The notes under the pieces are model-generated. The model did no database searches. It worked only from the letters and a program-made list of their open reading frames with translations, and was not told the DNA's origin. A program made the position numbers and the translations under genes. 61,688 nt of DNA from a virus, in the IMG/VR virus record IMGVR_UViG_3300044620_001837; one strand, written 5' to 3'. Numbering within the stretch: the first letter of the stretch is position 1; the number at the start of each line of letters is the position of its first letter. Shown piece after piece: positions 5,526 to 54,187 of the stretch.

Positions 5526-5971
5526 ATGAGGCGATTAACGCTCGCCTAGAAGCGATAAACAACCCGATTGATTGGGAGAAAATCTATTTTCAGTGGTTCG
5601 CTTGGGGATTGCCGGCCGAAGAGTGGCACGAATGGCCAGACTGGATGATTCTCAAAAAATGGTCGGGAGTGCAGCGAATCAAGGCAGAAGAAATAAACTC
5701 GCTATCGGGAACCGTGAGCCAGATTGCCGCAATGGTTCATTCCTACATGAAAGCCCAAGCCAAGGATAGCGGAAAAATAAGCGACCTCACCCCAGGGGAT
5801 TTTCTCCCATACCGACTGGAAAAAGAGAAAGAAACTTTCTTCGATCCCGAAACCGCCGAGATATTGGTAGAGGCATTAAAAGCCGGGGAAGTCCCCGTTT
5901 ATGCCCTACAAATAATCGTGGATTGTGGACTATACGACGAACTCATACAGCTAGGAGACAAGGAAAAATGA
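4767..5971 (+). CDS. Tail assembly chaperone GT-like, a -1 frameshift fusion product (shift at 5513-5519)
   Basis: After a -1 slip at A_AAA_AAC the frame is open with no stop through 5609..5971 (ORF-track protein MPAEEWHEW...). Its TGA at 5969-5971 overlaps the tape measure ATG at 5968. Confidence 0.6.
5513..5519 (+). other. Programmed -1 ribosomal frameshift slippery heptamer A_AAA_AAC
   Basis: An X_XXY_YYZ heptamer in the zero frame of 4767..5525. A 6-bp hairpin AGGCGA-ttaacgc-TCGCCT at 5529-5547 lies 9 nt downstream. Confidence 0.6.
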
Positions 5972-8900
5972 CCGTTTCACTAGGTACGCTAGAAATCGGA
6001 CTAGGTTTAATTACTACTCAGTACGATACTGGTATCGCACGGGCAAAAGGTCAACTTGTCTCCCTACAGCGTATGGCCGCCCGCTCTGGGGTGACGGTGA
6101 AAATCGGGGTAAAAGTAGATGATCGCCCGTTGTACCAACTAAACGATCACCTTAAGTTAAAACGGGATGACCTCGATAAAACCAGCGATCACTATCGGCG
6201 CAACCCTATTCGGGTATTTGTCGAGGATCGGCAACTTGTTAGTCTTAATCAGCAGTTGCGAGAGTTAAAGCGTGTCAGCGTTGATATAAAAGTTCCGTCC
6301 CGACTTGTGGTCGAGCATCGGTTTTCGGGGTATCAGGACAAAGTAGAAAAAGAGATCGAGCGATCAACATCTCGCCTTGCCTCAGAAATCCGAAAATCCT
6401 ATAGCCGCGGAGGGATTGTTGGGGCGGCTAGTCGCTTAGTAACAGGCGTCATTGCTTTACCTTTTAAAGCTACTGCGACGGTTTTAAGAGACGTTGTTAG
6501 AGGCTATTTTGAAAGAATCGGACAAGAATTTTCTAACACTTGGGCAGTAGAACCATCACGCAATGCTGCAAGAAAAATAACTATTGCTATCAAAAAAATA
6601 GACAGATATTTATTAGGACAAAATCAAGTTCTTGAAACTTACTTGTCAGAATTGACTCGCTCTGGAAGCACAGAAAAAGCATTTAACGCCGCTTTTAAAA
6701 GAACTAATGTAAATCAGGTAATAGAAAGGTTTAAAACTCTACAAGAAATAGCTACGGTTCCTGCAAGTAAAACAAAGGAAAGATTAAGGTTAATTCAAAA
6801 AGACCCTGAACTATCGAAAATACTCAAACAATCAACAGAGGAAATACAAAAACAATATGCAGGACAGGGGTTGTCCAAAGCTGAAATAGCAAATTTATCA
6901 ATGCAACGATTTTTAGAAAATGCACAACCTCAGACAAAAGTAGTTAATATACTTAATTCTTTTTTAAAAGAAATTAGCCCCTTTTTACGCTTCGTACAGG
7001 GAATGAAAGACTACAGAACTTCCCTAGAAGCCCAAAAGATTTACAGTGAAAGAAAGGCGGGTTTCCCAAAATTAAAAGAAGGGGAAGACGTTGTTAGCGT
7101 CATTGGAGGCGCACAATTTAGAGGGGGGCAAGGCGGGCGTAAAGCAGCTATGTCTTTAGAGCCGTTAGCTCCCCAAAAAAGATTTATTCCTGTAGAAAAT
7201 CCTGAAACCGATACCGATTTAGAAAATGAAAGGCCAGCAGAAAAACAGTTTAAGGCTTTTATTTCTCGGAATTTAACCTTTTTAGAAGGGGAAGAAGCTC
7301 TAAACACCTTAATAAACGCTTTTAGGCAAATATCGTCTAGCTTGGACGCTTTTACTCCGTCAACTGCTGCGGCTCAAGCATTAGCCAACACAATGCTTGC
7401 TCAAGAGCAAGGACGTAAAGGAAATGTTGTTTCATATTCTTTGGGTGGTGTGGATAATATTCAATATGCCAGAACCGCTCAATTTATGGGAGTAAAAGAT
7501 ACTCAAGCGTTAGCAATGGCTTACCCTTTTGTTGACATAACCCAAAGCACACCCAAAAACTTCACGGCTTCGATGCTAACGTCCGATCCCCTCGGCTTTG
7601 TCAAGCTTCTAGGGATCGGGAATAAAACAAATCAATTTATGGGGATAGAAAGCACAAACCCCTATGGAAGTGCAAATCACCATCAGAAACATCTTTTTAA
7701 AAACATAGAATTTATAAATAAGTTTTTTGCAACAATTAACGCCAATATTCCAGATTTATCTCCTGGCAAAATATCAGCAATTGTAGAAGCAGGAGATAAG
7801 CTTTATGAGTTAATCGGTTCGATGAATCAAATAGAATCGGTGTTGAGTACAGGAGAATTTAATACCGATCTGCCTTTCCACAGATTTTTGCAAGGATACG
7901 ATGGGCAAACCACCAAGTCTAATGTCTTAGACTTGGTGTTAGAAATGATGCAAGATAACTTCGCAATTGAAGCATTTAAAGATGTGGAAGGAGCAGAAGA
8001 ATTTTATGCAAAGTTAAGAAATCAATTTGACAAAATTGCATCACAATTTAAAGAAAAATTTCAAGCGTCAGGCGTTAATTTACCAGAAAACCTTGCTAGA
8101 GATTTTGCTGGTTTTCTGAAATATCAGGAAGTGGCAGAAGGATACAATAAGTCCATGACGGAATTCCAGACCGGAAAAGTCTCTGAAAAACCGTCATGGT
8201 GGGCTGGCAATCTCGATCCCAATACCGTAAAACAGCGCACTGGGAAGCTACAGACAGAAACTATTCCATGGTTTAGAAAAGAAGGCTCTAAATTTGGCTC
8301 CTATCAAGACGCTTTAATAGAAATGTTTACCTTGATTGACAAGGTAACAAAAGAATATGTTAGTCGAGGCGGGAATTTATCGGACGAAACCAGACAAAAT
8401 CTTAAGTTTTTCCCAACTGAAACAATCCCAAGCGAAATAAACGCTTTTTTGGGAAAATCATTTCCTACCAAAAATTTACCCAAAGAAGAAATTGTTAGAG
8501 ACTTAAATCTGCAATTCCCTGAATATACTGCTTCAACATCTAATTTAACTGCTTTACAAAAAATTGATTATGAAGCTGAAAAACAAAGAGTAACTAAGTT
8601 ATTTAGAAATAGGCAAGCGGCTATTCTTGCGTACAATAAATTAATCACGGAACTAACCGCTGAAATTGTCCCTAGTATAGACAAAATAAAAGCGATCGGT
8701 ACGGGTTTTCCTGAACTAGGAATGCACGGCTCCTTTGCCTTTTTAACTGATGAATTTGTTTATAAAACCGATATTGACCCAGAAGGTGTTAATAAAAAGA
8801 TAGCAACTCCTAATGAACTAGAAACATATAAACAATTACAGGGGAGACTATCGCCGCTTCTTTATAAAGCGGTTCCCGATAAAGCTATCGTCACCGAAAG

Positions 8901-11900
8901 AATACAAGGAAAAACGCTAAAAGAAATTTTAACTAGAATAGCGCAACCGTTCAAGAAAGTTCAGAAACAATTGGCGGATGCTACCCTTGCGCTAGATAAA
9001 GTCACAAAAGAAGGCAATGAAGCTGAAATAGAAAGATTAAACAAAGAAATAACAAGTTTAGAAAAAACAGCACAAAAAGAAAAAACTCGCTTCAATAAAG
9101 CGGCAACCATTCTTTATAAACAGGTTGGACAATTAAACTCGGCATTACAAAAAATGGGTGTTGTCCATAATGATTTGGCCGAAACTAACGTATTTTTCTC
9201 GCCTCAAGGAATTCGGGCTATAGACTTCGGTGGATCACAGGTTAATCCTACAGCCGCTCAAAAAATTGAAGACAAGAAAACCGTCATAGATAGAATGATG
9301 GGGAATAATCAGTATAAAGGTTTGATGGACAAAACGGCCGTGGCTGGGGCTATTTTGTCTGGTTTTCAATCCCCTTTGCCAATACCTGAAAAACGAACCG
9401 TTGATCCAGAAAAGTTAAAACAAACCACGCCAGGACAATTAATAGAACTAGGATCAACTAATCCCACGCTCTTGCAGCAATACGGTGAGAAAATAACCTA
9501 CCCTAAAACAAAACCATTTTCTATACCTCCAAAGCAAGAAAAAGTTACTACGCCAAAAACTGAGAAGCTTAATCCTACTGTATTTCTAGAACAATCCTTA
9601 ACCAGAAATACAGACAGAGCTATAACAGCGTTAAATTCTATAGAACAAGCTTTAAATGAAATAAAAAAAGGTATTCTGGCTAAATATGCTAGTCCTTTAA
9701 TCGATCCGTGGCAAAATAGCACGCCTGACCCGTGGGCTAAATCTAACGCCGAATTAATGCGGGCTTTTGTAGATGCAATTAACAAGGTATCCTCACAAAA
9801 GCTTTTGCCGCCCGCTCCTGACGATTTTGGCAGTAGTGAAACAGATAGAGGAAACAGCCCACTAGAAAAAATCTTAGAAGATATATCTATTAAAGCCCAA
9901 GCGGGTTTAAAAAGTGCTTTAACTACTAGATTATCAACTCCCGATAGTAGTGGTGAAATACAGCTTTTAACAGGGCAAGAAAACATTTCAGAACTGTTAA
10001 ATCAGGTATTAATTAGAGAGGTAAAAGAAGCGGGCAGAATACTTGGAAACGCTCTCAAGGATGCCTCTCTAGATGTCGTCAAGTTCGGTCAAATTGTTTT
10101 CACCGTTCTAAAAGCGATCGAACGTCCCGTTATGGCTATTCCCGGTGTGGGACTGGGGAAAAAAGCACTACAGGTAGGGGGAACCGCCGCAATAGGAGCG
10201 GCCGCTCTCCACGCACTCCCGATGGGGTTAGATGCCACAATCGTTAACGAGATGCGAAGCATTCTAGCGGGGGCAATGAGTGCAGGCGGTCGGGAAATGA
10301 TCCAAGCCGTAGCCACACAAATGACTCAAGCTTTTAGCGGCTTGCCGTTTGGAGTGGGACAACAGTTAACGGAAGCGGTAATGAACCTTGTTACCGAACT
10401 AACCAACGGCACTATCAGCGTCTTAGCGCAAGGGGGGGCGGTCGCTGGATCGGCGTTAATGGCGGGGGAAGGGGTTAAGAAGCTTTTAGGGGCGGCTACC
10501 AGTAGCGTCCCTAAATTAATTGACAAAGAAGAACAGCAAAAAATTGAAGGTAAAACCCAGAAACTTTTAAAAGCCGCAAAAGATAAAGCCGGTTCTTTAA
10601 TTACTACTGAAATAACCCCATATTTTGACGAAAAAGCTTTCCCGGTAAGTAGTCCTATTCCAGCTAACATCAAGGCAATTAACCCAAAATATTACACGGT
10701 AAAACAATTACGAGGATTAGCTAGAGATCAGGGAATTGATGTACCAGCATCGGGAGCAGGAGCCAGAAAAGAGGAAATATGGAAATCATTAACTGAAAAA
10801 TTTAACCCTGACCAACTAACTCGACTTTTACTAACAACAAAAGCAAGTGATAGAACAAAATTAGGGAAAAAAGAACTTAGTGGATTCCAAGTTGAAACTA
10901 CAGAAATTCCTGCTGATTTTACCAAGAGAATTGGCATTGGCATAAAAAACATTGGTCAAGAAATTAATACTACTAAAGATATCCAATCTTTAGAACGTCT
11001 TTATTTTCAATTAGAAAAAGTTAAAAAGGGAATTGCATCGTTGAGAGCTAATCCTGAATTTAACACAACAAGTATTAATAAATCATTAAGTGGCTTTTTA
11101 CAGTCAGTTGATAATTTACAGACACAAATTCTTGCTAAAGGTGGTTTGGAGTCAGGTAAAAACCTTAATGAAGGTTTAGCTAAGGGATTAAAAGATAACG
11201 ATGCTGAAAAAATCGTTAGAAAAAATGCACGAAATATTATCGATGGGTTAAATGATGAATTAGGTAATAGATCGCCATCTTGGAAAGGGGAAAAAGCGGG
11301 GCGTTATCTGATTCAGGGTGTAGGAATAGGCATTGAAAAAGAAGAAAGTAGATTAACCACTAAGATAAAAGAGTTAACCACTAAAGTCATCAAAGAATTA
11401 CAAAAAGGATTATCTAATCCTACTCTTAAAGGGCTTTTAGCTACTCTTGCTATAGTTTCTAGTGGGATGCCTGCCAACGCACAGCAGTTTATCCAAACAG
11501 AATCCTTTAAGGGAGTCACGATGAACCCTGCCACAACTGGGGTAGAGGTTGTTAAGCAGGTTGATGTAGATAAAAAAGCTTTCCAAGACAGAAAAGCGAT
11601 CGCCTATAGTTCCGGCCCGATGTTTGATAGGTTTTTCTTGCAAGATAAAAACCAGCAAGTAAACATGATTGCCGATGTTGTCCAGAGAGAACAAGTTTTG
11701 CAGTTATCTCGTAATCGTGCGGCCGCAGAAGAAAGGGGTTTTATCGGCATTAATAAACAAGGAAAATTAAAATTTGGCTATGGCGGTGCAAAATCAAATA
11801 AATTAAGTGATTATGACACTTTTGTTGGCGGTCTTCACGTTTTATATAACGATGAAGTGCCAAAACCCGCTAACTACAAAGGTGGATACCATAGCTCGCT

Positions 11901-14900
11901 AAAACAGCAATTAGCCTATCAAGTACCACGCCCGCGAGTATTTTTCGGTAAAACAAAAGAAGGTAATTTAACTGTTATGGAAGGTCAAAAAGACATGACT
12001 CCACAACAGTTAGAGAAATATGCTCGCTCTATGGGATTTACTGCTGTTATGCTTCCCGATCATGGGAATATGGCGCGGTTAACAGTGCCGGGTCAATCTA
12101 TGAGCCGCATTTTGCCACAATCGTTAGGAGGGACTGGAAAATCTACCCCTTACCAATTAAGATTTTTTGAACGTCCTCAAATAGAAAGCAAACAAGCGAA
12201 GCTATCAGAATCTTCTAGTGTAGTTACCCCTCCTGTTGAAAAAGAAAAAAATCTTTCAGCAAGCAATGTCTTTGATACTGTTGTTGATAGAGAATTGTCT
12301 ATCAGTCCTCAATCAACAACTAACAAAATATTACCAATTAAACATATTTCTAGAAAAGTTGAATCTGCTGACAAAGCATTAACTAACGATCTGTTAGAAT
12401 TTATAGGCAATTATGGGTTAACCGTTGCTTCTTTATTAAGTTTGCTTGGAATAACTGGAAAAGTTGCATCTAAACTTAAAAAAGCAAGTCAACGACAAAA
12501 ACCCTTAGAGGCTATTCCAGTCATTGAAAACATACCACAGCCAAAACAGTCAAATAATACTAATTTATCTCGTATTATAGATGTTGAGTTTAGCGTCGTT
12601 GATGAAAAAATAGATTTTACTTATGTGCAAGCTACTAAGAAGCGCATAAGTGCAATGGGGAGAAAAATTATTGAAGACATCAAATCCTCTAACCCCACTA
12701 TAGACACTTCTGGTACAGTAAGAGCCTTTGAAGAAACCGCAAATAAACTTAGTGAAGATTTTAAACAGCGGATCAACAAAAACAGGACAACCCTCATAGC
12801 TACATCTTTAAATGTATCACGTCCACAACAGGTTTTACCTAGTTTACCAAAGCCAGACATAAAGTCTATATCGCCTGATTTTATCAAATCAATTCAGAAT
12901 AGAAAACTTTCAGCTTTTTCTAATATAGTATTACCAAAACCTCCAAGCATAACACCAGTTAATATACCTACTAGCACGGCAAGCATTAATAAGCTTGGAG
13001 AAACTGCAAAAGACTACATAGATGTTATTTATAAAGTGATAGACGAAGGGGAAAAAGTCGAAAAGAAAATAAAACAGCTTGCTAAAAATTATACTGAAAC
13101 CCCCTCGCCGCAGGAAGCAAGCAATATTCCCGCTCAAGCTGGCTTAGGCGGCAGTGGAGGTGGCAAAAAACCGCCTAGACCTCCTCGTATTGCAGCTTCT
13201 GCTAGTCCCGAACCTGAACCTAAAAAAGAAAAGTTTGATGTATCTAAAGAGGCTGAAAAAGCTTTAAAAGATATTCAAAAGGCTAGAGAGGCAATAAATA
13301 AACTTGACAAAGAAGAGGAAAAACTTAAAAACTTAAAAATAGAATTAGGAATAGAACCAAAAACGACAAGAGAAAAAATTCTTGGAGACTGGAATAAAAA
13401 ACGAGACAATATTTTCAACGCTCTCGATAGTATTGAAAAAGCGGGCGTTTCTAGTGGCTTTACAGACGGCATCGTGACTGGACTTAAAACCGCTATCGCC
13501 CAAGCTGACGGATTTATCAATTTCCTCTCGGTCGGTGGCAAAGCACTCAGAACTCTCGACAAAGAACTCGATGCCGCTACTGGTGGGATGATCAACCTTC
13601 GCAAAGCATCACTAGCAGTCATCGGGGGATTTGCGCTATTCAAAACCGCTGAATTCCTGTTAGAGCCTTTGTTTTTTGCAATTCAGGATTTGCCGTTCCG
13701 AGTACAACAAGCGGTCACGGATTCGTTACTCGCATTTACCGAATTACAGCAAATCAGGATCAACCTCGACATTGCTGGCGTTAACAACGTTGATACGGCA
13801 ATTGACGGACTGCGAAATCGGGCTGATGAACTTGGTATCTCATTCAGAGAATCAGCCAAGCAATACGCCCAGTTCCAGATCGTGACGACTGGCTCACCAC
13901 TACAAGCTCAAGGTGATGACATTTTTGAGGGTTTTCAATCTGCCCTTGCGGTACGGCAAACTAACCCACAACAGCAAACTGAAACATTCCGAGCGATCAA
14001 CCAAATGGCCGCCCGCTCGGTGCTATCAGTAGAAGAATTCACCCAACAATTAACCGAGTCTGGGGGACTGTACGACGCGCTGATTGTTGCGGCGCGTGCG
14101 ATGGGGATGACAACCGCTGAATTCTACCGGCAAGCGTCGGCTGGGCAATTACTTTCTCAGGACGTGATCCCCCGGTTAGCGGCTGAGTACGAACGCCTAA
14201 GTGCGGGGGGAATCGGTGCATCGAGCAAAACTTTACAGGCGGAAATGAACCGCTATCAGAACAATATCGAACAATTATCGATGTCCACAGGGGAAAAACT
14301 TGGCGTTGTGGCTTATCCCGCGCTACAGCTACTTAATACTCTCCTAAAAGGACTAAATGACAATCTCGGCTTAGTTGCGACGGTAAGCGCGTCTGCGGTA
14401 ATCGCCACAATCGGACTACTCGGAAAATCGGTACTGCAATTTTCCGCCGCTACTCGGCTAGGACAAGGATTAATCGCTTCTTACAACGCCTCGTTATTTG
14501 CGATGGGAGTTACCGCAGGGCAAACAACGACCAAAATGCAAATGTTGTCTGCCACGGCAAAAGTAGCGGGCGGAGTGCTAAAAGCAACAATTGGAGCGAT
14601 GATCGTTCCTGCGGCGACGATCGTTGCGCTTCAAACGTTTTACGATATTTTCGAGAACGGGGACGCAAATCTTAAAAATTCGCTTCAAACCCTCAAAGAA
14701 TCGAGAAAAGTTTTAGAGGATTTAGGGAAAATTGAACCCGAAAACGAAAACAAAAATCTCTGGAATAAATTTTTCCCCGATATGAACCTATCGGGAACCG
14801 AGAAATTCTTTAACGTTCTGACGGTCGGAACCGTTTACACCTTTAAGCGAAACAATGCTGTTCGCGACCAGCAAGAAAATCTCAAAAACATCCGAGAAGG

Positions 14901-17900
14901 CGCAGAGGGGCTAGAGACGAACCTAAAAACCTATCAAACCGTACTTTCAGACACAGCTGGGATCGATAAGTTTATCGACTCATTGCAAGGTCTCCGGAAC
15001 TCGCTCGCTCAAGTTCGGGCAGAACGGGCAATCGCCGCAAATAAAGAGGATTTTGCGGCGGTAGCGCGCCTGAACGAGCGAGAACAGGAATTAATGAAGC
15101 AAGAGCAGGAAGCGATCGATAGACGCTTAGGATCGGTCGGTTCTCGCATCACCGCGGATTTACAGGTCGCCGAAGCCGCGCTCGCAGCACTAGAAGAAGA
15201 GTATCAAAAAAGCGGGGGTACGCTTAAGAATTATGGGGCAAAATCGGAGCGTCTCAAGGGAATTATCGCTGGACTTAAAGCCGAACAGCAGAACTATCTC
15301 AATGTCCTTAGAGATCAGGAAAAAGAGTACAAAAAACTTCAGTACGCTTTTAACCGAACTCTTAACGCCCAAGAAAACCGAAACTTTATTAACGCCAGAC
15401 AATCACTAAATCGACAGATCGGTAACGAATTAGCGTTCGCATTGGGACAACTCAACGAGTACGAATTTAACGTCAAGGTACGTGAAGAGTCGCTACAAAC
15501 AGCCAAAGAAAAATTTGCATCCCTTCAAACAACCGCGTCGGAAACCGGGGCGAAGCTAAGTAGTCGTATTACCGAGGCGGCTGACAAAACGCTGTCCACT
15601 TACTTCAAGGACGATCTTAAGCGATTAGGGGTCGGGAATTTTTCCGAGGCGATCGCTAGGAATCTACTTTCCCCGGAAGCGATCGAGCGGGTCATGTCCG
15701 AAAATTCGGGCGATCTCGAATCGAACGCCGCCCTTAAAAACATCCTAGAAATGGCGAAAACTTACGCCACAACTAGACAAGAGATTTTACAGTCCGAGAA
15801 AGAAATTCAGTCTATCAATCGGGAAATAATTACCGAGCGGAAACGTCGTCAGCTGTCCGAAAAACAAGCGGCTAACGAAATCCTAATCGCAGGACAACAG
15901 GAAAAGCTCTACTCCTCCACACCGACAGGCAAGCTTCGCTCGTTACAACCTGCCGAAACACGGGTATCCCTAGAGGAGCTTTACAAGCAATTAGCAGTCG
16001 AACAAGAAAGACTGGCGGCAAACGTCGATGATCCCTTGCAAATTCGCTCAAATATTGCCCGAATTAAAACGAACATCGCCCGGACACGCTTAACCTTACG
16101 GGATCAGCAAAACGATCTTGTTGAGTTCTATACGACTACGGCGATCGAGATCGAGGCAACCAATAAACAGATCGGGCTGACCGCTCGAACCGCGTCAAAT
16201 CAGGTCAAGACTTTCGCCCGTGACCAGACACTAATCGAGATCTCAAAACTTTACAAACAACTCGCTTTTGAGCAATCAAAGCTAGTCGGGACACTCAAGG
16301 GCGATCCCCTCGAAGTTAAAGCCAATATTGCTCGAATTCAACTCCAGATCGAGCAAGCAAAATTATCCCTGCGTGACCAGACAACCGACATTGAGGATTA
16401 CTACACCGGACTGCAAAGACAGGTAGTTGACCTCCGAGTATCGATCGAGGATTACCAGATTCAATCTGCCCGCGAGGTAAGAGGGTTTAAAGAAGCCTAC
16501 GGAGACATGATCCGTGGGTTACAACGATCTCTCATCGAAGCGGAAAACGAATTCCGAGCAAGTCAAAGAAGTCTCGAAAACCAACGCTTGCAGGTGTCGA
16601 TGCTTTCTGGGCGCACACCTGGCGTAAGCTCACTACAGAAGCAATTAGATGACCTCATCCTACAATATCGGGATGAAATAGCCTCGATTCAAGGCGAAGC
16701 GGATAGCCTGAGAACACGGCCGCTCGACATTCGAGATCAGTCAATCCAGTTCGCTCGACAATTACGAGACATTCAAGAGCAAATCTACGATGCCGAACGG
16801 AACCGCTTAAAACAGCTACGGGATTTCTGGATGCAACAAGTCCAGATAGTCCGTGAACTATCACAGCAACAACTAACATTTAAGTCGCTTAACGAAATAT
16901 GGGCAGGAATTTTGGAGAATTCCAAGAAACTACTCGCTAAATCGGGAAAAATTGCGGGCGGAAAAGTCCCGAATGTAGCCCTAGCAATCGGGGAAGCTCC
17001 GAACAATAGCGAAAGCTCCGAACAATACAGACAGGGAACTCCGAACAATCCCCGAACATTACAGAGAGGAGACTACATTGACTATGGCAACGGGCGGATT
17101 TACAAATACGATCCTTCCCCGAATTATGATCCCAAAACGATGCGCTATCGATCGCCGGTCAACGCCGACGAAATCCGTCACCCCTCGGTAGTTCAGCAAG
17201 TCGGCACTTCAGGGTCAGAAGAGTTTGACCGCCTGCTAATGCGATCGGGTCTCTACAAAAACTGGGAAGGTTTTACGCGGGAAGTTCTCAACCCGAACCT
17301 TCAGCCTCTCACTCCCGAAGAAAGAGCGAATTACAACGCTGGCAACGTCGGAAGATATTCTGGTGTGCTGACGGGACAACCACAAGCGAACATCCCGCTC
17401 ACGCCGCTCCCAACTTTTGACTACGATCGAGCTAGGGAACTCGATACTCAAATTCGGATTACCCGTGAGAAAACCCTACAGAATCAAAAAGAAGAAAACC
17501 TACTTAAACTCGAACGGGCAAGGCGGGAAAACCTTGATCGGATCGCAGGACTGATCCAACAAACACAGGAGGCTCGAATTCAAGCCGAGATCGGATTGAG
17601 AGACACGGGAGACACCTCGACTGACCTAATGCGCTCCTCTAAGGGCTATCTCACTTTTTCGGAAAAAATCGAACAAGCCCGACGCAATGGGAGCCGGGAG
17701 ATCGAAAAACAACGAGAGTCGATCCAGTCCCAAATTCGATCGCTCGATCAACTTACCTCGGATTTCGCTAAAAACTCGGAAGAAACACGGGCGCGGCTAT
17801 TTCAAGACACGGGTAACGATGACGCATTCAAGGCTCTTGAAGCCGAAAACAAACGAAACACCGCTATTCTTGAAGGATACAAAGCTCTCGACAATCAACT

Positions 17901-18924
17901 GAGCGTCTATGGACAGATCAGGGGTGAAGCGGCCGCCATGCGAATGATCGAGGATGAGCGGGTAGCCGCCCTCGAACGTTACAACAATCTAATTGCAGAC
18001 GGGATCGACGCGGGGAATCGGATGAACCCACTCGGAACGCTTTTCAGTGCAGGAGAAGCGCAAAAGCTCCGCATAGAAGCAGACTTCGCTCGTCGTCGCC
18101 TCGAACTCCAGCGATATGCCCAAGAAGGTGCTTTATCTCCTACCCAGTTATTTGAAATGTCGGCCGCCCTCGACAAAATGCAACAGGCTAACCTCGCTTC
18201 CGCGTTTATCGAGGCTAATCCTGCGGTGGGAGCGTTTGGGGATTTACTCCGATCCGCGTTCACTGGGGGACGGGACACCCTACAGCAAATGCTGAACGTT
18301 CTGACCAGCTTTCTACAGAAAATCGGGGAAATGGCGGCCAATCAGTTGCTCATGCAAATTTTTGGAGGAAGTGGGAGGGCATCTTCCCCAGTCCCGTCTG
18401 GCGGCGGAGGAGGTGGGCTACTAGGAGGAGCAATAAGCCTATTCACTGGTTCCCTCGGCGGATTTAGCTCGCCTATTGCCTCTACCCCATTTACGGGTGC
18501 ATCTAACTTTTCTCTAGGAACGGGATTCAGCCTCTTTAGTTCTGGCGGAAAAATCGGAGCCGATGCCCCGATAGAGAAAAATGTGATTTCTGCCTTCCGG
18601 CGTGAACGGTCTATGAGCGGAGGGAGAAACCCCCGATTGATCGTGGCCAACGAAGACGAATATGTTATCCCCGCAAACGAAGCCAAGTCTTATCTGGAAT
18701 ACAAAAATGCCCCGATCAAAAACTACGCCAGCGGGGGATTTGTCGGGGGAACTGGCTACAGCGTTACGACCTCGAACAATAATTCGTCTAATCAATCCCT
18801 CTCGATCACCAATGTGAGCAATGTTACGATAGAATCACGAAATGATATGGGATATTCCCTAACTCAGTTAAAAGAGCGTGAGAACGCCCAAAATGAGCGA
18901 ACAAAGCGGAGATTTTTTGGATGA
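5968..18924 (+). CDS. Tape measure protein, 4318 aa, with several embedded globular domains
   Basis: An uninterrupted 12.96-kb ORF. ATG 5968 follows GGAGA and overlaps the GT stop. The tape-measure core is ...AARSVLSVEEFTQQLTESGGLYDALIVAARAMGMTTAEFYRQASAGQLL (~13990-14215). It has long coiled coils, hydrophobic segments and a Gly-rich C-terminus (GGGGGLLGGAISLFTGSLGG). Confidence 0.9.
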   Translation: MTVSLGTLEIGLGLITTQYDTGIARAKGQLVSLQRMAARSGVTVKIGVKVDDRPLYQLNDHLKLKRDDLDKTSDHYRRNPIRVFVEDRQLVSLNQQLRELKRVSVDIKVPSRLVVEHRFSGYQDKVEKEIERSTSRLASEIRKSYSRGGIVGAASRLVTGVIALPFKATATVLRDVVRGYFERIGQEFSNTWAVEPSRNAARKITIAIKKIDRYLLGQNQVLETYLSELTRSGSTEKAFNAAFKRTNVNQVIERFKTLQEIATVPASKTKERLRLIQKDPELSKILKQSTEEIQKQYAGQGLSKAEIANLSMQRFLENAQPQTKVVNILNSFLKEISPFLRFVQGMKDYRTSLEAQKIYSERKAGFPKLKEGEDVVSVIGGAQFRGGQGGRKAAMSLEPLAPQKRFIPVENPETDTDLENERPAEKQFKAFISRNLTFLEGEEALNTLINAFRQISSSLDAFTPSTAAAQALANTMLAQEQGRKGNVVSYSLGGVDNIQYARTAQFMGVKDTQALAMAYPFVDITQSTPKNFTASMLTSDPLGFVKLLGIGNKTNQFMGIESTNPYGSANHHQKHLFKNIEFINKFFATINANIPDLSPGKISAIVEAGDKLYELIGSMNQIESVLSTGEFNTDLPFHRFLQGYDGQTTKSNVLDLVLEMMQDNFAIEAFKDVEGAEEFYAKLRNQFDKIASQFKEKFQASGVNLPENLARDFAGFLKYQEVAEGYNKSMTEFQTGKVSEKPSWWAGNLDPNTVKQRTGKLQTETIPWFRKEGSKFGSYQDALIEMFTLIDKVTKEYVSRGGNLSDETRQNLKFFPTETIPSEINAFLGKSFPTKNLPKEEIVRDLNLQFPEYTASTSNLTALQKIDYEAEKQRVTKLFRNRQAAILAYNKLITELTAEIVPSIDKIKAIGTGFPELGMHGSFAFLTDEFVYKTDIDPEGVNKKIATPNELETYKQLQGRLSPLLYKAVPDKAIVTERIQGKTLKEILTRIAQPFKKVQKQLADATLALDKVTKEGNEAEIERLNKEITSLEKTAQKEKTRFNKAATILYKQVGQLNSALQKMGVVHNDLAETNVFFSPQGIRAIDFGGSQVNPTAAQKIEDKKTVIDRMMGNNQYKGLMDKTAVAGAILSGFQSPLPIPEKRTVDPEKLKQTTPGQLIELGSTNPTLLQQYGEKITYPKTKPFSIPPKQEKVTTPKTEKLNPTVFLEQSLTRNTDRAITALNSIEQALNEIKKGILAKYASPLIDPWQNSTPDPWAKSNAELMRAFVDAINKVSSQKLLPPAPDDFGSSETDRGNSPLEKILEDISIKAQAGLKSALTTRLSTPDSSGEIQLLTGQENISELLNQVLIREVKEAGRILGNALKDASLDVVKFGQIVFTVLKAIERPVMAIPGVGLGKKALQVGGTAAIGAAALHALPMGLDATIVNEMRSILAGAMSAGGREMIQAVATQMTQAFSGLPFGVGQQLTEAVMNLVTELTNGTISVLAQGGAVAGSALMAGEGVKKLLGAATSSVPKLIDKEEQQKIEGKTQKLLKAAKDKAGSLITTEITPYFDEKAFPVSSPIPANIKAINPKYYTVKQLRGLARDQGIDVPASGAGARKEEIWKSLTEKFNPDQLTRLLLTTKASDRTKLGKKELSGFQVETTEIPADFTKRIGIGIKNIGQEINTTKDIQSLERLYFQLEKVKKGIASLRANPEFNTTSINKSLSGFLQSVDNLQTQILAKGGLESGKNLNEGLAKGLKDNDAEKIVRKNARNIIDGLNDELGNRSPSWKGEKAGRYLIQGVGIGIEKEESRLTTKIKELTTKVIKELQKGLSNPTLKGLLATLAIVSSGMPANAQQFIQTESFKGVTMNPATTGVEVVKQVDVDKKAFQDRKAIAYSSGPMFDRFFLQDKNQQVNMIADVVQREQVLQLSRNRAAAEERGFIGINKQGKLKFGYGGAKSNKLSDYDTFVGGLHVLYNDEVPKPANYKGGYHSSLKQQLAYQVPRPRVFFGKTKEGNLTVMEGQKDMTPQQLEKYARSMGFTAVMLPDHGNMARLTVPGQSMSRILPQSLGGTGKSTPYQLRFFERPQIESKQAKLSESSSVVTPPVEKEKNLSASNVFDTVVDRELSISPQSTTNKILPIKHISRKVESADKALTNDLLEFIGNYGLTVASLLSLLGITGKVASKLKKASQRQKPLEAIPVIENIPQPKQSNNTNLSRIIDVEFSVVDEKIDFTYVQATKKRISAMGRKIIEDIKSSNPTIDTSGTVRAFEETANKLSEDFKQRINKNRTTLIATSLNVSRPQQVLPSLPKPDIKSISPDFIKSIQNRKLSAFSNIVLPKPPSITPVNIPTSTASINKLGETAKDYIDVIYKVIDEGEKVEKKIKQLAKNYTETPSPQEASNIPAQAGLGGSGGGKKPPRPPRIAASASPEPEPKKEKFDVSKEAEKALKDIQKAREAINKLDKEEEKLKNLKIELGIEPKTTREKILGDWNKKRDNIFNALDSIEKAGVSSGFTDGIVTGLKTAIAQADGFINFLSVGGKALRTLDKELDAATGGMINLRKASLAVIGGFALFKTAEFLLEPLFFAIQDLPFRVQQAVTDSLLAFTELQQIRINLDIAGVNNVDTAIDGLRNRADELGISFRESAKQYAQFQIVTTGSPLQAQGDDIFEGFQSALAVRQTNPQQQTETFRAINQMAARSVLSVEEFTQQLTESGGLYDALIVAARAMGMTTAEFYRQASAGQLLSQDVIPRLAAEYERLSAGGIGASSKTLQAEMNRYQNNIEQLSMSTGEKLGVVAYPALQLLNTLLKGLNDNLGLVATVSASAVIATIGLLGKSVLQFSAATRLGQGLIASYNASLFAMGVTAGQTTTKMQMLSATAKVAGGVLKATIGAMIVPAATIVALQTFYDIFENGDANLKNSLQTLKESRKVLEDLGKIEPENENKNLWNKFFPDMNLSGTEKFFNVLTVGTVYTFKRNNAVRDQQENLKNIREGAEGLETNLKTYQTVLSDTAGIDKFIDSLQGLRNSLAQVRAERAIAANKEDFAAVARLNEREQELMKQEQEAIDRRLGSVGSRITADLQVAEAALAALEEEYQKSGGTLKNYGAKSERLKGIIAGLKAEQQNYLNVLRDQEKEYKKLQYAFNRTLNAQENRNFINARQSLNRQIGNELAFALGQLNEYEFNVKVREESLQTAKEKFASLQTTASETGAKLSSRITEAADKTLSTYFKDDLKRLGVGNFSEAIARNLLSPEAIERVMSENSGDLESNAALKNILEMAKTYATTRQEILQSEKEIQSINREIITERKRRQLSEKQAANEILIAGQQEKLYSSTPTGKLRSLQPAETRVSLEELYKQLAVEQERLAANVDDPLQIRSNIARIKTNIARTRLTLRDQQNDLVEFYTTTAIEIEATNKQIGLTARTASNQVKTFARDQTLIEISKLYKQLAFEQSKLVGTLKGDPLEVKANIARIQLQIEQAKLSLRDQTTDIEDYYTGLQRQVVDLRVSIEDYQIQSAREVRGFKEAYGDMIRGLQRSLIEAENEFRASQRSLENQRLQVSMLSGRTPGVSSLQKQLDDLILQYRDEIASIQGEADSLRTRPLDIRDQSIQFARQLRDIQEQIYDAERNRLKQLRDFWMQQVQIVRELSQQQLTFKSLNEIWAGILENSKKLLAKSGKIAGGKVPNVALAIGEAPNNSESSEQYRQGTPNNPRTLQRGDYIDYGNGRIYKYDPSPNYDPKTMRYRSPVNADEIRHPSVVQQVGTSGSEEFDRLLMRSGLYKNWEGFTREVLNPNLQPLTPEERANYNAGNVGRYSGVLTGQPQANIPLTPLPTFDYDRARELDTQIRITREKTLQNQKEENLLKLERARRENLDRIAGLIQQTQEARIQAEIGLRDTGDTSTDLMRSSKGYLTFSEKIEQARRNGSREIEKQRESIQSQIRSLDQLTSDFAKNSEETRARLFQDTGNDDAFKALEAENKRNTAILEGYKALDNQLSVYGQIRGEAAAMRMIEDERVAALERYNNLIADGIDAGNRMNPLGTLFSAGEAQKLRIEADFARRRLELQRYAQEGALSPTQLFEMSAALDKMQQANLASAFIEANPAVGAFGDLLRSAFTGGRDTLQQMLNVLTSFLQKIGEMAANQLLMQIFGGSGRASSPVPSGGGGGGLLGGAISLFTGSLGGFSSPIASTPFTGASNFSLGTGFSLFSSGGKIGADAPIEKNVISAFRRERSMSGGRNPRLIVANEDEYVIPANEAKSYLEYKNAPIKNYASGGFVGGTGYSVTTSNNNSSNQSLSITNVSNVTIESRNDMGYSLTQLKERENAQNERTKRRFFG

Positions 18925-19528: not shown

Positions 19529-22093
19529 GTGGCTAATTTCCTAATCCCTACCGCTATCGGACTCGGAGCCAATCTACTCCTAACACTACTAGCCCCGTCT
19601 GGCCCGCGACAGCAAAAAGGGAAAATCGAGGACACCGGTGTTCCCGATGCTGAGTTCGGATTCTCCCTCTCCCTCCCCTTTGGGCGGGTGCGAAAAAAAG
19701 GATTGCCGATGATGTGGGCTTTAAAGCTAAAAGAAAGAAGAAAAGTATCGGGAGGGAAAGGTGGTGGGACACAAATAGAAACTTTTTCCTACTTTTTAAC
19801 AGCCGCTTATCCAATCGCACGGGAAATCAGTTCTGTCCGGCGTGTTTGGATGAACCGGATATTGGTTTATAGTAGTGAGTCGGATGACCCGAGAAGCGAA
19901 AGGTTTTTAGAGCATTGCACAATCTACACGGGCGATCAGACTACGCCATCCTCGGTAATCCAAGAGAACGAACCAGACTACCCCATTCCTGTATTTAAAG
20001 GATGGAGTTATATGGCTTTTGATGATTATCCAATCGCTGAATATGAAGGCAGTGGATTTCCTCAAATTGAAGTGGAAGTTGTGGGGCAAAGCGGCGAAAA
20101 TCCTAAAGTCAAAGATATTCTTGTACGAATTTGCGAAATAGCGGGAATAGCCGAAAATAAAGTCGATGTGAGCGGGGTTCCCGATAATTTAGAGATTGAA
20201 GGCTTTGATTTACTATTTGATGGAACCTCGTTCGCCGATCAGATCGGGGAATTATTGAGAGCGTTTTTCTTGATAGTCAGAGAAACAAAAGATAAGCTTA
20301 TTTTCAAACAGCAAACAGCAGGGGAAGTCACCCATATCCCGAAACTGTCATTAGGGGCAAAAAAATTCGGAGATCGTCCGATAGATTTATATGAAATAAA
20401 GCTTACACATTTTCGAGAAATCCCAAGTGCCGTAACAGTAAACGGATTAAACATTAATAAAGACCAAGACGCTATTTCAGTTGTCGCAAAAGACCCCGCC
20501 GCAAAACACACTAACGAACTAACAATTCAAACCAAATTAATATCTAGTGATAACTTATTTATCACGCTTGCATCTCGCATTCTTTTCCTCGGACGCTCGC
20601 AATCCAAAACGTTTTCTAAAATGTTTTTATTGCCCACATGGGACGATCTTGCCGTAGGAGATTTAATATCGGCAGACGGCGACCGCTTATTCCATCGAGA
20701 GGTTTTACAGATCACAAAAAAAGTTAGAGGCGCAGGGTACTTGATCGAGTTAGAAGCGACTCGATTTCAGGGCTTTTCAAACCAGTGCAAGCATATAGCG
20801 GTCTACGATTTAGGAGTTTACAATGCTCCGGTTCCTCCCCAATTTGGGCAGTGGATTACACGCATTCAAAAGGGAACGGTGTTTGATCCGATTGAGTTTT
20901 ACCGTTCCCCGATGCGAGTAGAAACTACCTTGCCGCTCGGTCAGATTTCGCCACTGCCAAATACCGAATTTAGGATTTATGATGCTGACGACAATCTCAT
21001 TTTTACCCGAAATACAGCCCATGGACTCACTGCCGATTCAACGTGGTCACAAGTAACCGACTGTACTGGCATAGACCAGCTTACAAGCGATAATTTATTA
21101 GAAATTATTGTCGATCTTCCATTTGCCCCTCCCGTCGAAACTCCTGCAAGCTACGGTTCGGCTACAGCGATTGTTATTGAATGCCCACCGGTTAATTCCT
21201 CGGATGCCGATCTGGGTTTTTATCTTGCAATTGAAGGAGATGAAGACTATCGAACTGGGACAATATTTTACTCCGAGGACGGCGGGGAAAGCTACCTTTT
21301 TGCTACTGCTATTACTGGCGAAAGTGTGACAGGGACAGTGTTAAGTTTTAGCACAAACTTTAATAATTCGTCTCCTAATTTTATTGACGACCTCAATACA
21401 GTCCAAGTAAGAATGGATTCAGGAGAAATCGAGCCAGTAACACTTGAGAAATTCTTGTCAGGAAAACAACTCGGTTGGTTTTCTACGGGCGAAATTATCG
21501 CTTTTAAAAATGCGGAAATTGTCTCGAATAATCCACTAACTTTTGATATTTCCTACATGATTCGTGGCACTAAAGGAACCGAGGCTTTTATTGACAATCA
21601 CGCTATCGGAGAGCGGTTCGTACTGCTTACTGATTATCTTGTCCGCCTACCTGCTGAATTGTTCGATGTCAACCGGGAAGTTCGTTTTAAAATCGTGCCA
21701 GATGGATTGACCGAGACAGAAGTTGCTAACGAGACAATCCACACAGTCACACTAGAAAGCGTCAAGCCGTTTCCTGCGGTTGTGACATCGGAACGAGTCG
21801 GCGGTGACGTAATCATTTCGTGGTATCGGAGAACGCGGATTAACGGCCGATGGACGGACTATATCGATATTCCGTTTGCCCCAGGTGAACTCGATACCTA
21901 CACGGTCAGAATTTACGACGGTAGCACGATAAGACGGGAATTCGTAACTGGGGTGGGAGAGCGATCTGTCACCTACACCTCAGCACAACAAATAGCCGAT
22001 TGGGGATCAGTCCAATCGGCGTACACTGTTCGGGTTTTTCAGAATTCAAGTTACCCCGTGGCTTTCAAGGAAGCATTAGGGGTGAGCGTTTAA
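19529..22093 (+). CDS. Host-specificity / central tail protein (lambda J-like, GTA g15-like)
   Basis: 854 aa with a GTG start. The N-terminus ...SGGKGGGTQIETFSYFLTAAYPIA... resembles the conserved J/g15 N-terminal block. The gene follows the NlpC/P60 gene. Confidence 0.65.
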   Translation: MANFLIPTAIGLGANLLLTLLAPSGPRQQKGKIEDTGVPDAEFGFSLSLPFGRVRKKGLPMMWALKLKERRKVSGGKGGGTQIETFSYFLTAAYPIAREISSVRRVWMNRILVYSSESDDPRSERFLEHCTIYTGDQTTPSSVIQENEPDYPIPVFKGWSYMAFDDYPIAEYEGSGFPQIEVEVVGQSGENPKVKDILVRICEIAGIAENKVDVSGVPDNLEIEGFDLLFDGTSFADQIGELLRAFFLIVRETKDKLIFKQQTAGEVTHIPKLSLGAKKFGDRPIDLYEIKLTHFREIPSAVTVNGLNINKDQDAISVVAKDPAAKHTNELTIQTKLISSDNLFITLASRILFLGRSQSKTFSKMFLLPTWDDLAVGDLISADGDRLFHREVLQITKKVRGAGYLIELEATRFQGFSNQCKHIAVYDLGVYNAPVPPQFGQWITRIQKGTVFDPIEFYRSPMRVETTLPLGQISPLPNTEFRIYDADDNLIFTRNTAHGLTADSTWSQVTDCTGIDQLTSDNLLEIIVDLPFAPPVETPASYGSATAIVIECPPVNSSDADLGFYLAIEGDEDYRTGTIFYSEDGGESYLFATAITGESVTGTVLSFSTNFNNSSPNFIDDLNTVQVRMDSGEIEPVTLEKFLSGKQLGWFSTGEIIAFKNAEIVSNNPLTFDISYMIRGTKGTEAFIDNHAIGERFVLLTDYLVRLPAELFDVNREVRFKIVPDGLTETEVANETIHTVTLESVKPFPAVVTSERVGGDVIISWYRRTRINGRWTDYIDIPFAPGELDTYTVRIYDGSTIRREFVTGVGERSVTYTSAQQIADWGSVQSAYTVRVFQNSSYPVAFKEALGVSV

Positions 22094-30695: not shown

Positions 30696-31547
30696 ATGCA
30701 AAACCTAGACAGTAAAACATTTTTTGCCTTTGGCGGCGGCGTTCAGTCAACCGCTATAGCCCTTCTATTAATTCATGAACCCCACAAACTACTCGATCTT
30801 GGATTAACTCTCCCGAAAACAATTATTTTTGCCGACACAGGAGCGGAACCGAAAGCGATTTACGATCACGTTAACCAAATATTTGAAATGCTGTCAAGAG
30901 CCGAGTATGACACGGTAGTAGTTCAGCGCATTGAAAAAAATGGATCAATCATTCCAATTCACGAGCAATGGTGGGGACTCGCTTCTATTCCATGGTTTAC
31001 AAGGTCGTTAGATGGTCAAGTCGGAATGCTAAAAAGGCAGTGTACCGAAGAATTTAAAATTAAGCCGATCCAAAAAGAAATCCGCGCCAGACTGGGATAC
31101 AAAAAAGGTCAAAGAATCCCACCCCTGACCGCTAAACTTTGGCTCGGAATTTCTGTTGATGAACAGAGAAGAGCGAAAATTAATCAAGATAAGTGGCTCA
31201 ACAACAAACACCCGCTTATTTATCTAGGGTGGAATCGCAACGATTGCGCCGTTTACAATTACCTTCATCTAAATCGGAACGTATCAAAATCATCATGTTT
31301 CTTCTGTCCGTTTAAGCATCGACAAGAATGGATGCGAATGAGGCAAGAAGAACCCGATGAATTTGCTCGGGCTGTAGAAGTTGACAAAAAAATTCGGCAT
31401 TTAGTAACTATTGGCAAATGCCGACAAGATGTTTTTGTTCATTCGTCAGGCTTGCCACTAGAAGATGCCGTACTAGATCAATTATCTCTTCCGCTTGGAA
31501 TCGATTACGGCTTCGGAAAAGAATGTGCAGGGCATTGTGGAGTATAA
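30696..31547 (+). CDS. PAPS reductase / PP-loop ATP-pyrophosphatase family protein
   Basis: The N-terminal PP-loop variant is FAFGGGVQSTAIALLL. Cys motifs SSCFFCPF and ECAGHCGV are present. 283 aa. Confidence 0.7.
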   Translation: MQNLDSKTFFAFGGGVQSTAIALLLIHEPHKLLDLGLTLPKTIIFADTGAEPKAIYDHVNQIFEMLSRAEYDTVVVQRIEKNGSIIPIHEQWWGLASIPWFTRSLDGQVGMLKRQCTEEFKIKPIQKEIRARLGYKKGQRIPPLTAKLWLGISVDEQRRAKINQDKWLNNKHPLIYLGWNRNDCAVYNYLHLNRNVSKSSCFFCPFKHRQEWMRMRQEEPDEFARAVEVDKKIRHLVTIGKCRQDVFVHSSGLPLEDAVLDQLSLPLGIDYGFGKECAGHCGV

Positions 31548-31552
31548 GCAAA

Positions 31553-54116: not shown

Positions 54117-54187
54117 TGCAGGTGAGTGAAACGGCTCACGCAAGGCTCATAACCTTGAAACAGCGGGTTCGACTCCCGTGCCTGCGT
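54117..54187 (+). tRNA. tRNA-like gene with anticodon CAT (Met, or Ile2 if lysidinylated)
   Basis: Hand-folded cloverleaf with segment lengths 7/2/4/6/4/1/5/7/5/5/5/7/5/7/1. The anticodon loop is CTCATAA, the T-loop TTCGACT and the D-loop contains GG. The acceptor has two G:T pairs and position 8 is G. TATGAT at 54105-54110 is placed as a -10. Confidence 0.6.

Follow-up and report, generated by a model that had tools for sequence, protein, structure and literature searches.

We find a compact two-lobed domain of the protein-kinase-like superfamily, predicted from sequence profiles and a structure model to be of the atypical Bud32/RIO type, inside a giant tail tape measure protein of an uncultivated siphophage. 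The DNA is IMG/VR virus record IMGVR_UViG_3300044620_001837, and all positions refer to this whole stretch of 61,688 nucleotides, which we call the window. The domain lies at nt ~8668-9375, within the open reading frame (ORF) of the tape measure protein. A reading of the letters alone (the original prediction) had suggested a kinase-like domain in this ORF, and NCBIfam models, a profile search of the PDB, AlphaFold2 and Foldseek all bear the suggestion out. The kinase forms the C-terminal third of an N-terminal block of ~1150 amino acids (aa), and this block is the hallmark of a family of tape measure proteins of giant size (3000-5800 aa) from uncultivated siphophages.

Fold and catalytic motifs of the kinase-like domain

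The peptides on which the kinase proposal was built, IKAIGTGFPELGMHGSFAFLTDEFVYK, AIVTERIQGKTLKEIL, MGVVHNDLAETNVFF and IRAIDFGGSQ, all lie in a single frame of the 8680-9330 translation, and their codons had been placed correctly. IKAIGTGF begins at nt 8686, which puts the Lys codon at 8764-8766; VVHNDL begins at nt 9160, which puts the HND codons at 9166-9174; and AIDFGG begins at nt 9217, which puts the DFG codons at 9223-9231. Residue numbers such as K62 follow A2, an alignment of 21 family cluster representatives. The module is also present at 23 IMG/VR loci, on contigs of up to 90 kb, and A2 together with these loci amounts to 39 distinct sequences. The elements of the domain are as follows.

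8668..9375, + strand: protein-kinase-like domain, both lobes (AlphaFold2, Foldseek, PDB profile, NCBIfam Bud32)
8719..8733, + strand: glycine-rich loop G-M-H-G-S (family consensus GMSGA; LGMHGSF in the window; G47 and G50 invariant)
8764..8766, + strand: beta3 Lys (VYK), K62, invariant in the 38/38 sequences covering the column
8815..8817, + strand: alphaC Glu (NELETY), E79, invariant in 39/39
8896..8910, + strand: hinge E-R-I-Q-G (Glu in 38/39; Arg in 34/39, Lys in the other five; Gly in 39/39)
8917..9153, + strand: helical hairpin, A2 residues 113-191 (base, alphaD/alphaE; tip, a variable-length insertion)
9166..9189, + strand: catalytic loop H-N-D-L-A-E-T-N, with invariant His, Asp and Asn (H196, D198, N203)
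9223..9231, + strand: D-F-G (family consensus DLG; Asp, D215, in 39/39; Gly, G217, in 37/39)
9271..9294, + strand: invariant Asp and Arg past the DFG (DKKTVIDR; family consensus DxxTTxQRA)
9376..9489, + strand: proline-rich tail PLPIPEKR...IELGS, conserved, extended in the model, with a predicted local distance difference test score (pLDDT) down to ~60

Profile searches place this segment among kinases. Compared with the single window sequence, the NCBIfam model arch_bud32 (TIGR03724) gives E 5.8e-9, Bud32 models make up the five best NCBIfam matches, and the KdkA and homoserine-kinase models match the domain as well. The Pfam families RIO1, Pkinase, Kinase-like, Kdo, choline kinase and APH coincide on the same segment with scores near or below their cut-offs. 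Scanned one at a time, 11 of the 21 members match Pkinase, 11/21 RIO1, 9/21 APH and 7/21 Kdo (best E 1e-6). A phmmer search of the PDB with the single sequence returns Bud32 (8unk_B) first. Likewise, the A2 profile finds 1384 PDB sequences at E<=1, and all 60 that were listed are kinases, led by Bud32 8unk_B (E 4.7e-6), MSK1, a Kae1-Bud32 fusion and TP53RK.

We modelled the domain with AlphaFold2 on A2 and obtained a mean pLDDT of 92 and a predicted TM score (pTM) of 0.87. The model shows an N-lobe with strands at 38-41, 51-55, 59-64, 94-98 and 102-106 and an alphaC helix at 77-86, followed by the hinge, a long helical hairpin, the catalytic loop, two short strands and two helices after the DFG. 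Foldseek returned 742 PDB matches at E<=10 with this model, and the 50 listed all belong to the kinase-like superfamily, among them Rio2 (E 1.2e-6), APH(2''), PRPK, Kae1-Bud32, PknB and capreomycin phosphotransferase. The best superposition is on PRPK 6wqx_D, with a TM score of 0.63 normalised to the target over 276 columns. The predicted fold is thus a two-lobed alpha/beta kinase fold and not a pure coiled coil, and the match to the superfamily is significant in both profile and structure searches. Could the motifs nevertheless be a chance resemblance in a coiled-coil-rich protein without a kinase fold? The single-sequence Pfam scores near or below cut-off, and the fact that only the stretch from catalytic loop to DFG aligns in sequence, would fit such an accident. 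We regard it as refuted, with practically no probability left, by the Bud32 E-value, the kinase-only profile matches, the model that matches in both lobes and the invariant motifs.

The motifs are those of an atypical kinase. The glycine loop reads G47-x-x-G50; other atypical kinases likewise depart from the canonical GxGxxG. The loop named in the original prediction is present, although the loop conserved in the family is G-M-x-G-A, which corresponds to LGMHGSF in the window; GTGFPEL, just before it, is a 5-residue insertion confined to the lineage of the window and the sole part of the model with pLDDT <50. The catalytic loop of the family, HNDLAxxN, is without the Lys of eukaryotic-type Ser/Thr kinases, and the same holds in Bud32, RIO, Kdo and APH. 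HMMER aligned the window loop with HNDLTTSN of Bud32, and the invariant Asp past the DFG with the Asp of Bud32 'KAVDL'. Downstream of the DFG the model has no activation segment, only two helices. Two sites vary in length. The first is the hairpin, for which AlphaFold2 gives helices at A2 113-144 and 147-191, predicted to be antiparallel; between the invariant K114 and F171 it measures 56 residues in the window and 39-140 aa across the family. An insertion of ~60 residues had been expected at this site and is there, but as an antiparallel hairpin that extends alphaD/alphaE in the model and not as the coiled coil proposed. The second site, from the catalytic Asn to the DFG, spans 11-67 residues. 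Beyond the domain, a tail with the consensus PLPxPxxR...L.P......IPLGS ends the kinase module in nearly all family members, and may be a docking or processing site.

The catalytic residues are strictly conserved. Identity to the window within A2 is 31-49% and mean column identity is 33%, and the invariant columns include the catalytic set G47/G50, K62, E79, H196, D198, N203 and D215-x-G217. Further invariants are specific to the family (G88-R89, R107, G110, K114, F171, G183, D231, R238 and G261). K62, E79, H196, D198, N203 and D215 stand in canonical order and remain invariant in the 39 distinct sequences, so the conservation expected of HND (its His and Asp) and of the DFG Asp holds throughout. 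Because six catalytic residues are invariant at ~33% column identity, the domain is probably an active ATP-dependent enzyme rather than a pseudokinase, and we infer that it binds ATP-Mg and transfers or hydrolyses the gamma-phosphate. Pseudokinases are common, and a kinase fold that lacks an activation segment and sits inside a structural protein might serve as a non-catalytic scaffold or binding module, its motifs kept for stability or nucleotide binding. Pseudokinases usually lose at least one of the catalytic residues, however, and here all six are invariant in 39 diverged sequences, which makes a scaffold very unlikely.

In its fold and all its motifs the domain belongs, by these predictions, to the protein-kinase-like superfamily (Pfam clan PKinase). 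The original prediction had called its style closest to RIO, Bud32 and Kdo kinases, and this agrees with our searches, whose nearest neighbours are Bud32/PRPK and Rio2. None of the known families takes it in. TIGR03724 gives 35.7 bits (cut-off 125), and the NF0114xx models 27-33 bits against 174-246. RIO1 reaches 18.8 bits on the whole protein (cut-off 22) and 22.7 on the excised fragment, where only profile positions 103-149 align. Pkinase scores 15-20 bits against a cut-off of 31.7, the loop reads HNDLAETN in the window, not HRDLKxxN, and the model, with its two helices past the DFG, has neither an activation segment ending in APE nor the alphaF-alphaI subdomains. On sequence grounds we therefore place the domain in a separate new clade of atypical kinases, restricted to the giant tape measure family and outside Bud32, RIO and Pkinase.

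Comparison with the two nearest families gives the same picture. Bud32/PRPK (TP53RK), the atypical kinase/ATPase of KEOPS, is both the best sequence neighbour and the best structural superposition. It shares the HxDLxxxN loop, a minimal C-lobe without activation segment and a conserved Asp soon past the DFG. Unlike Bud32, the domain has no Kae1/Cgi121 partner or context (domain scans found no Kae1, Cgi121 or Pcc1 domain in the ORF or the window), carries the 39-140-aa hairpin between hinge and catalytic loop, and sits at aa ~900-1150 of a virion protein. RIO kinases supply the top Foldseek match by E-value (A. fulgidus Rio2, PDB 1zar/1tqi, 20% identity), and among Pfam families RIO1 fits the window sequence best. 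In contrast to RIO kinases, the domain is without the RIO-specific N-terminal helix or winged-helix domain, and the TM score to them is only 0.33-0.38 with a high root mean square deviation.

The giant tape measure protein and its conserved block

The ORF that carries the domain runs from 5923 to 18924 on the + strand and encodes 4333 aa from the first TTG, or 4318 aa counted from the ATG at 5968. Pfam TMP_3 matches aa 2612-2785 with 50.2 bits (cut-off 41). PHROG 2335 ('tail length tape measure protein') matches with E 4e-17; together with PHROG 18891, of the same name, it covers aa 2537-3487. Near-identical cluster members are named 'tape measure domain-containing protein' by JGI. The gene order of the relative L003 is major head protein (phrog_29), major tail protein (phrog_1407), a 287-aa ORF and then the giant ORF; the ORF pattern around the giant ORF is the same in the window, where a tail protein (19529-22093) comes next. 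Together these matches and the gene order show that the giant ORF, part of a siphophage tail module, encodes a tape measure protein. Just past the TMP_3 core lie two hydrophobic segments with Kyte-Doolittle peaks of 2.12 and 1.96 (19-residue window). Pfam scans of the window protein found no muralytic domain.

5968..18924, + strand: giant tape measure protein ORF (Pfam TMP_3, PHROG 2335, JGI naming, gene order in L003)
6070..9522, + strand: conserved N-terminal block, ORF aa ~50-1200, common to the whole family; the kinase module is its last third
7075..7767, + strand: alpha/beta domain, possible Ser-Asp-His hydrolase (invariant Ser 7438-7440 in SYSLGG, Asp 7585-7587, His 7678-7680)
13756..14277, + strand: Pfam TMP_3 core, aa 2612-2785, conserved in 13-15/21 relatives
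14365..14652, + strand: two strongly hydrophobic segments, aa 2815-2843 and 2885-2910, directly past the TMP_3 core

Family clusters were taken at E<=1e-20 from an exhaustive HMMER search of 1.84 billion representatives with the single sequence. Twenty-two clusters were recovered, all of them proteins of 3000-5800 aa or their fragments, with the module at about aa 800-1350; no ordinary or cellular kinase appeared at E<=0.001 in the same search. Only the exhaustive search recovered the family: a word-indexed protein search gave no match with the domain alone and one fragment with the family profile. The family sequences are metagenomic (JGI, ENA, Logan), and an exact look-up of the window protein matched no record. 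Among 50,697 phage records, tblastn found the module in no isolated phage and megablast of 25 kb gave no match. Of two scans of genome contigs, the first was empty; the second turned up a pair of contigs assigned to metagenome-assembled genomes (Methylomonas, Alphaproteobacteria), an assignment that is probably a binning error for phage DNA and no reliable guide to the host. Two truncated cluster members had already been labelled 'Bud32' by automated JGI annotation. Literature searches for tape measure proteins with kinase, Bud32 or kinase-like domains, and for phage kinases packaged in virions, found nothing relevant, in line with the original prediction, which knew of no description of a tape measure kinase. 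The best matches of Foldseek among viral models are stand-alone kinases (E 4e-6 to 3e-5), with no tape measure protein.

Conservation along the protein is uneven. In phmmer comparisons with the 21 representatives, aa 150-1200 of the window protein are covered by 15-21 of them and aa 1200-2500, variable or unique, by 0-4. The region of the TMP_3 core (aa 2600-2900) is conserved again, in 13-15 relatives, and the rest of the C-terminal part is common to few. We modelled aa 16-1200 with AlphaFold2 and obtained a packed multidomain body (pLDDT 73, pTM 0.65). Numbered from Met16, it consists of ~200 low-confidence helical residues, a helical region at 200-365, an alpha/beta domain at 370-600, a helical region at 600-900 and the kinase. 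In the alpha/beta domain the invariant Ser stands at a strand-helix turn (strand 485-490, helix 491-507). Foldseek gave a single weak match for this domain, to a lipase (A. fulgidus 2zyi, E 0.012), and there was no match in Pfam, NCBIfam or a profile search of the PDB. The conserved residues and the model tentatively suggest that it may be a lipase- or esterase-like Ser-Asp-His hydrolase.

A possible lipase-like neighbour in the same block would suit a kinase of small molecules or of the envelope, one that phosphorylates a sugar, a lipid, the lipopolysaccharide (LPS) core or an antibiotic-like substrate in the manner of APH, choline kinase, KdkA and WaaP. These families share the HxDLxxxN (Brenner-type) loop, and the Pfam APH, Kdo and choline-kinase matches, the NCBIfam KdkA and homoserine-kinase matches and the Foldseek matches to APH(2'') and capreomycin phosphotransferase point the same way. 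The best scores in both sequence and structure nevertheless go to Bud32/PRPK and Rio2, the model lacks the large helical substrate-binding C-lobe of APH and choline kinases, and the periplasm is without ATP. We consider a small-molecule substrate unlikely.

The variable middle part showed several further peculiarities. A relative of 4425 aa (P0002) bears the JGI name 'muramidase (phage lysozyme)/beta-lactamase class A', and because of this naming aa 1200-2500 seem to be a slot for interchangeable modules, muralytic ones included. In the window, nt 11425-12222 (+ strand, ORF aa 1835-2100) begin with a mid-ORF segment that resembles a Sec signal peptide, LKGLLATLAIVSSGMPANA, followed by QQ. The ~240-aa region past it occurs in no family member, and searches of the PDB, NCBIfam and the protein database returned no homologue; aa 1835-2100 could be a captured gene for a secreted protein. 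The alignment with L001, a 96% identical relative, stops at window aa 1789; it starts again at L001 aa 2166, ~330 aa further on in that protein, against window aa 1735-1816, which points to an extra segment or a rearrangement in the variable region. In L002 (6551-12973, ~38% identical) the kinase-bearing ORF stops after 2141 aa without reaching a tape measure core, which means that the block is either encoded separately in this relative or cut off by a sequencing error in the contig.

Origin of the window and its other genes

The original prediction had spoken of cyanophages. We found no support for a cyanophage origin: the nearest terminases and the tail-tip protein point elsewhere, and nothing points to cyanobacteria. 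The closest terminases, ~42% identical, are from Rhizobium phages, the tail-tip genes resemble those of siphophages of Alphaproteobacteria of the gene transfer agent (GTA) type, and no isolated phage is close. Phage genes recognised in the window include those for a large terminase, a ribonucleotide reductase small subunit, a C5 methylase, a DUF3987 primase, a helicase and a DUF2460/gp84/BR0599 hub protein. The genes of the tail tip do not lie together, since the hub fusion lies past the primase and helicase genes.

19529-22093, + strand: GTA-type tail/host-specificity protein (Phage-tail_3 and Rcc01698_C), directly past the tape measure gene
37143-39467, + strand: DUF2460/gp84-N/BR0599 hub fusion protein, ~15 kb further on

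An intein-like element (Hom_end-associated Hint and a LAGLIDADG homing endonuclease) splits the helicase ORF (31418-34402, + strand; ResIII and Helicase_C), which also has a marginal DnaJ match of 27.7 bits, against a cut-off of 27.8. A tRNA-Met (CAT) at 54117-54187 (+ strand) overlaps by one base the stop end of the large terminase gene (54187-55866, - strand). The sampled gene starts (e.g. 2909, 3792, 4767 and 39550) are mostly without a Shine-Dalgarno motif, many have A-rich leaders, and the G+C content is 43%; these starts may hint at a host that makes little use of Shine-Dalgarno motifs. A search for an internal, Shine-Dalgarno-led start of a shorter tape measure protein carries no weight, because most of the sampled genes of the window lack the motif.

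Possible roles for the kinase in infection or assembly

The tape measure protein of phage 80alpha is a trimer whose N-termini, in the neck, abut the tail completion protein and the end of the DNA; its C-termini bind Tal at the tip, and it is thought to exit as a pilot with the DNA (PMC11661146). The leading reading, to which we give an even chance, is that the domain is a delivered effector kinase, a pre-made enzyme that enters the host. By analogy with 80alpha, the N-terminal block would be stored in the tail next to the DNA, in an unfolded or extended state, and would exit last, immediately ahead of it. It would then cross a channel formed by the hydrophobic part of the C-terminal region and refold in the cytoplasm; the kinase needs ATP-Mg, so that action after ejection implies entry into the cytoplasm. 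The ready-made enzyme would act before phage transcription, in host takeover or in the blocking of defences. The choice of substrate would probably fall to the adjoining domains of the block, in the manner of Bud32 and RIO, since the small C-lobe has neither an activation segment nor substrate-binding subdomains. A fuller version, in which the whole block is injected as a multi-enzyme effector whose kinase, alongside the putative Ser-Asp-His hydrolase, phosphorylates host targets ahead of phage expression, is tentative and less probable than delivery of a kinase as such.

Several known phage systems share features with the proposed kinase. Tape measure proteins are known to carry enzymatic modules, namely lysozyme/transglycosylase, M23 peptidase, the Rpf-like motif of TM4 and T5 pb2. 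These follow the same principle of a catalytic module acting during entry; in contrast to the kinase, which needs ATP-Mg, they attack peptidoglycan outside the cytoplasm and without ATP. The virion RNA polymerase of N4 and gp14-16 of T7 are very large pre-made proteins that pass a narrow channel at least partly unfolded and are active at DNA entry. Unlike a tail ruler, however, they are capsid cargo of podophages, and the reactions they catalyse are others (RNA polymerase, transglycosylase). Stand-alone phage proteins, too, include kinases of this superfamily; Synechococcus phage S-CBWM1 (RIO-like and ChoK-like proteins) and Bacillus phage vB_BcoS-136 (an ABC1-like protein) encode some of those closest to our domain among viral models. 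They are non-structural genes that need to be expressed, whereas the tape measure kinase belongs to a virion protein and would be present before transcription. T7 gp0.7, a stand-alone phage-encoded kinase, acts in early takeover, the function proposed here for the tape measure kinase.

Several points weigh against delivery into the host. ATP is found only in the cytoplasm, and the N-terminal half of a 4318-aa protein would therefore have to cross the envelope, which is unproven for tape measure proteins. The lumen of the tail tube is ~4 nm wide and three folded blocks of ~1000 aa are too large for it, so that unfolded storage or processing must be assumed. Bud32 and RIO are mainly ATPase switches and less often kinases of other proteins. 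The stop of the L002 ORF at 2141 aa suggests that the block is perhaps not always fused to the tape measure core. Finally, late gene expression means that the enzyme is present in the producing cell too.

The main rival is an enzyme of assembly or the late phase, an ATPase or kinase that would work in the producing cell, for instance as a switch or checkpoint for a very long tail, with the block later trimmed or idle. Bud32 and RIO, the nearest relatives, serve as ATPase switches when large complexes are assembled, ATP is available in the producing cell, and the folded block, a packed multidomain body in the AlphaFold2 model, exceeds the tube lumen. We also count in its favour that processing or fragmentation is frequent among tape measure proteins (PMC11661146). 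On the other hand, no protease or cleavage motif was identified, and the block stands at the N-terminus, whose partners in 80alpha are the tail completion protein and the end of the DNA; the first ~200 aa of the block are conserved too, which speaks for retention in the virion. We judge a role in assembly or the late phase to be plausible, if somewhat unlikely.

The finding adds to tape measure proteins an apparently active enzyme of a class that had not been described in them, and brings together the enzyme modules of tape measure proteins and the kinases of phages. An ATP-dependent kinase fold with strictly conserved catalytic residues implies that some of the protein acts in a place with ATP, the cytoplasm of either the newly infected or the producing cell. 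The family is also of interest for kinase evolution, as a self-contained clade with a minimal Bud32-like core and a hairpin of variable length. If the kinase acts in the infected cell, it would offer a testable handle on how far a tape measure protein travels during DNA entry of siphophages, and would bear on whether siphophages deliver ready-made effectors before transcription, for example against defence systems. If the block is in addition a multi-enzyme effector, the siphophage tape measure would serve as a vehicle for protein delivery, with a parallel in the cargo of contractile injection systems, and the host targets of the block could be proteins of transcription, defence or envelope stress.

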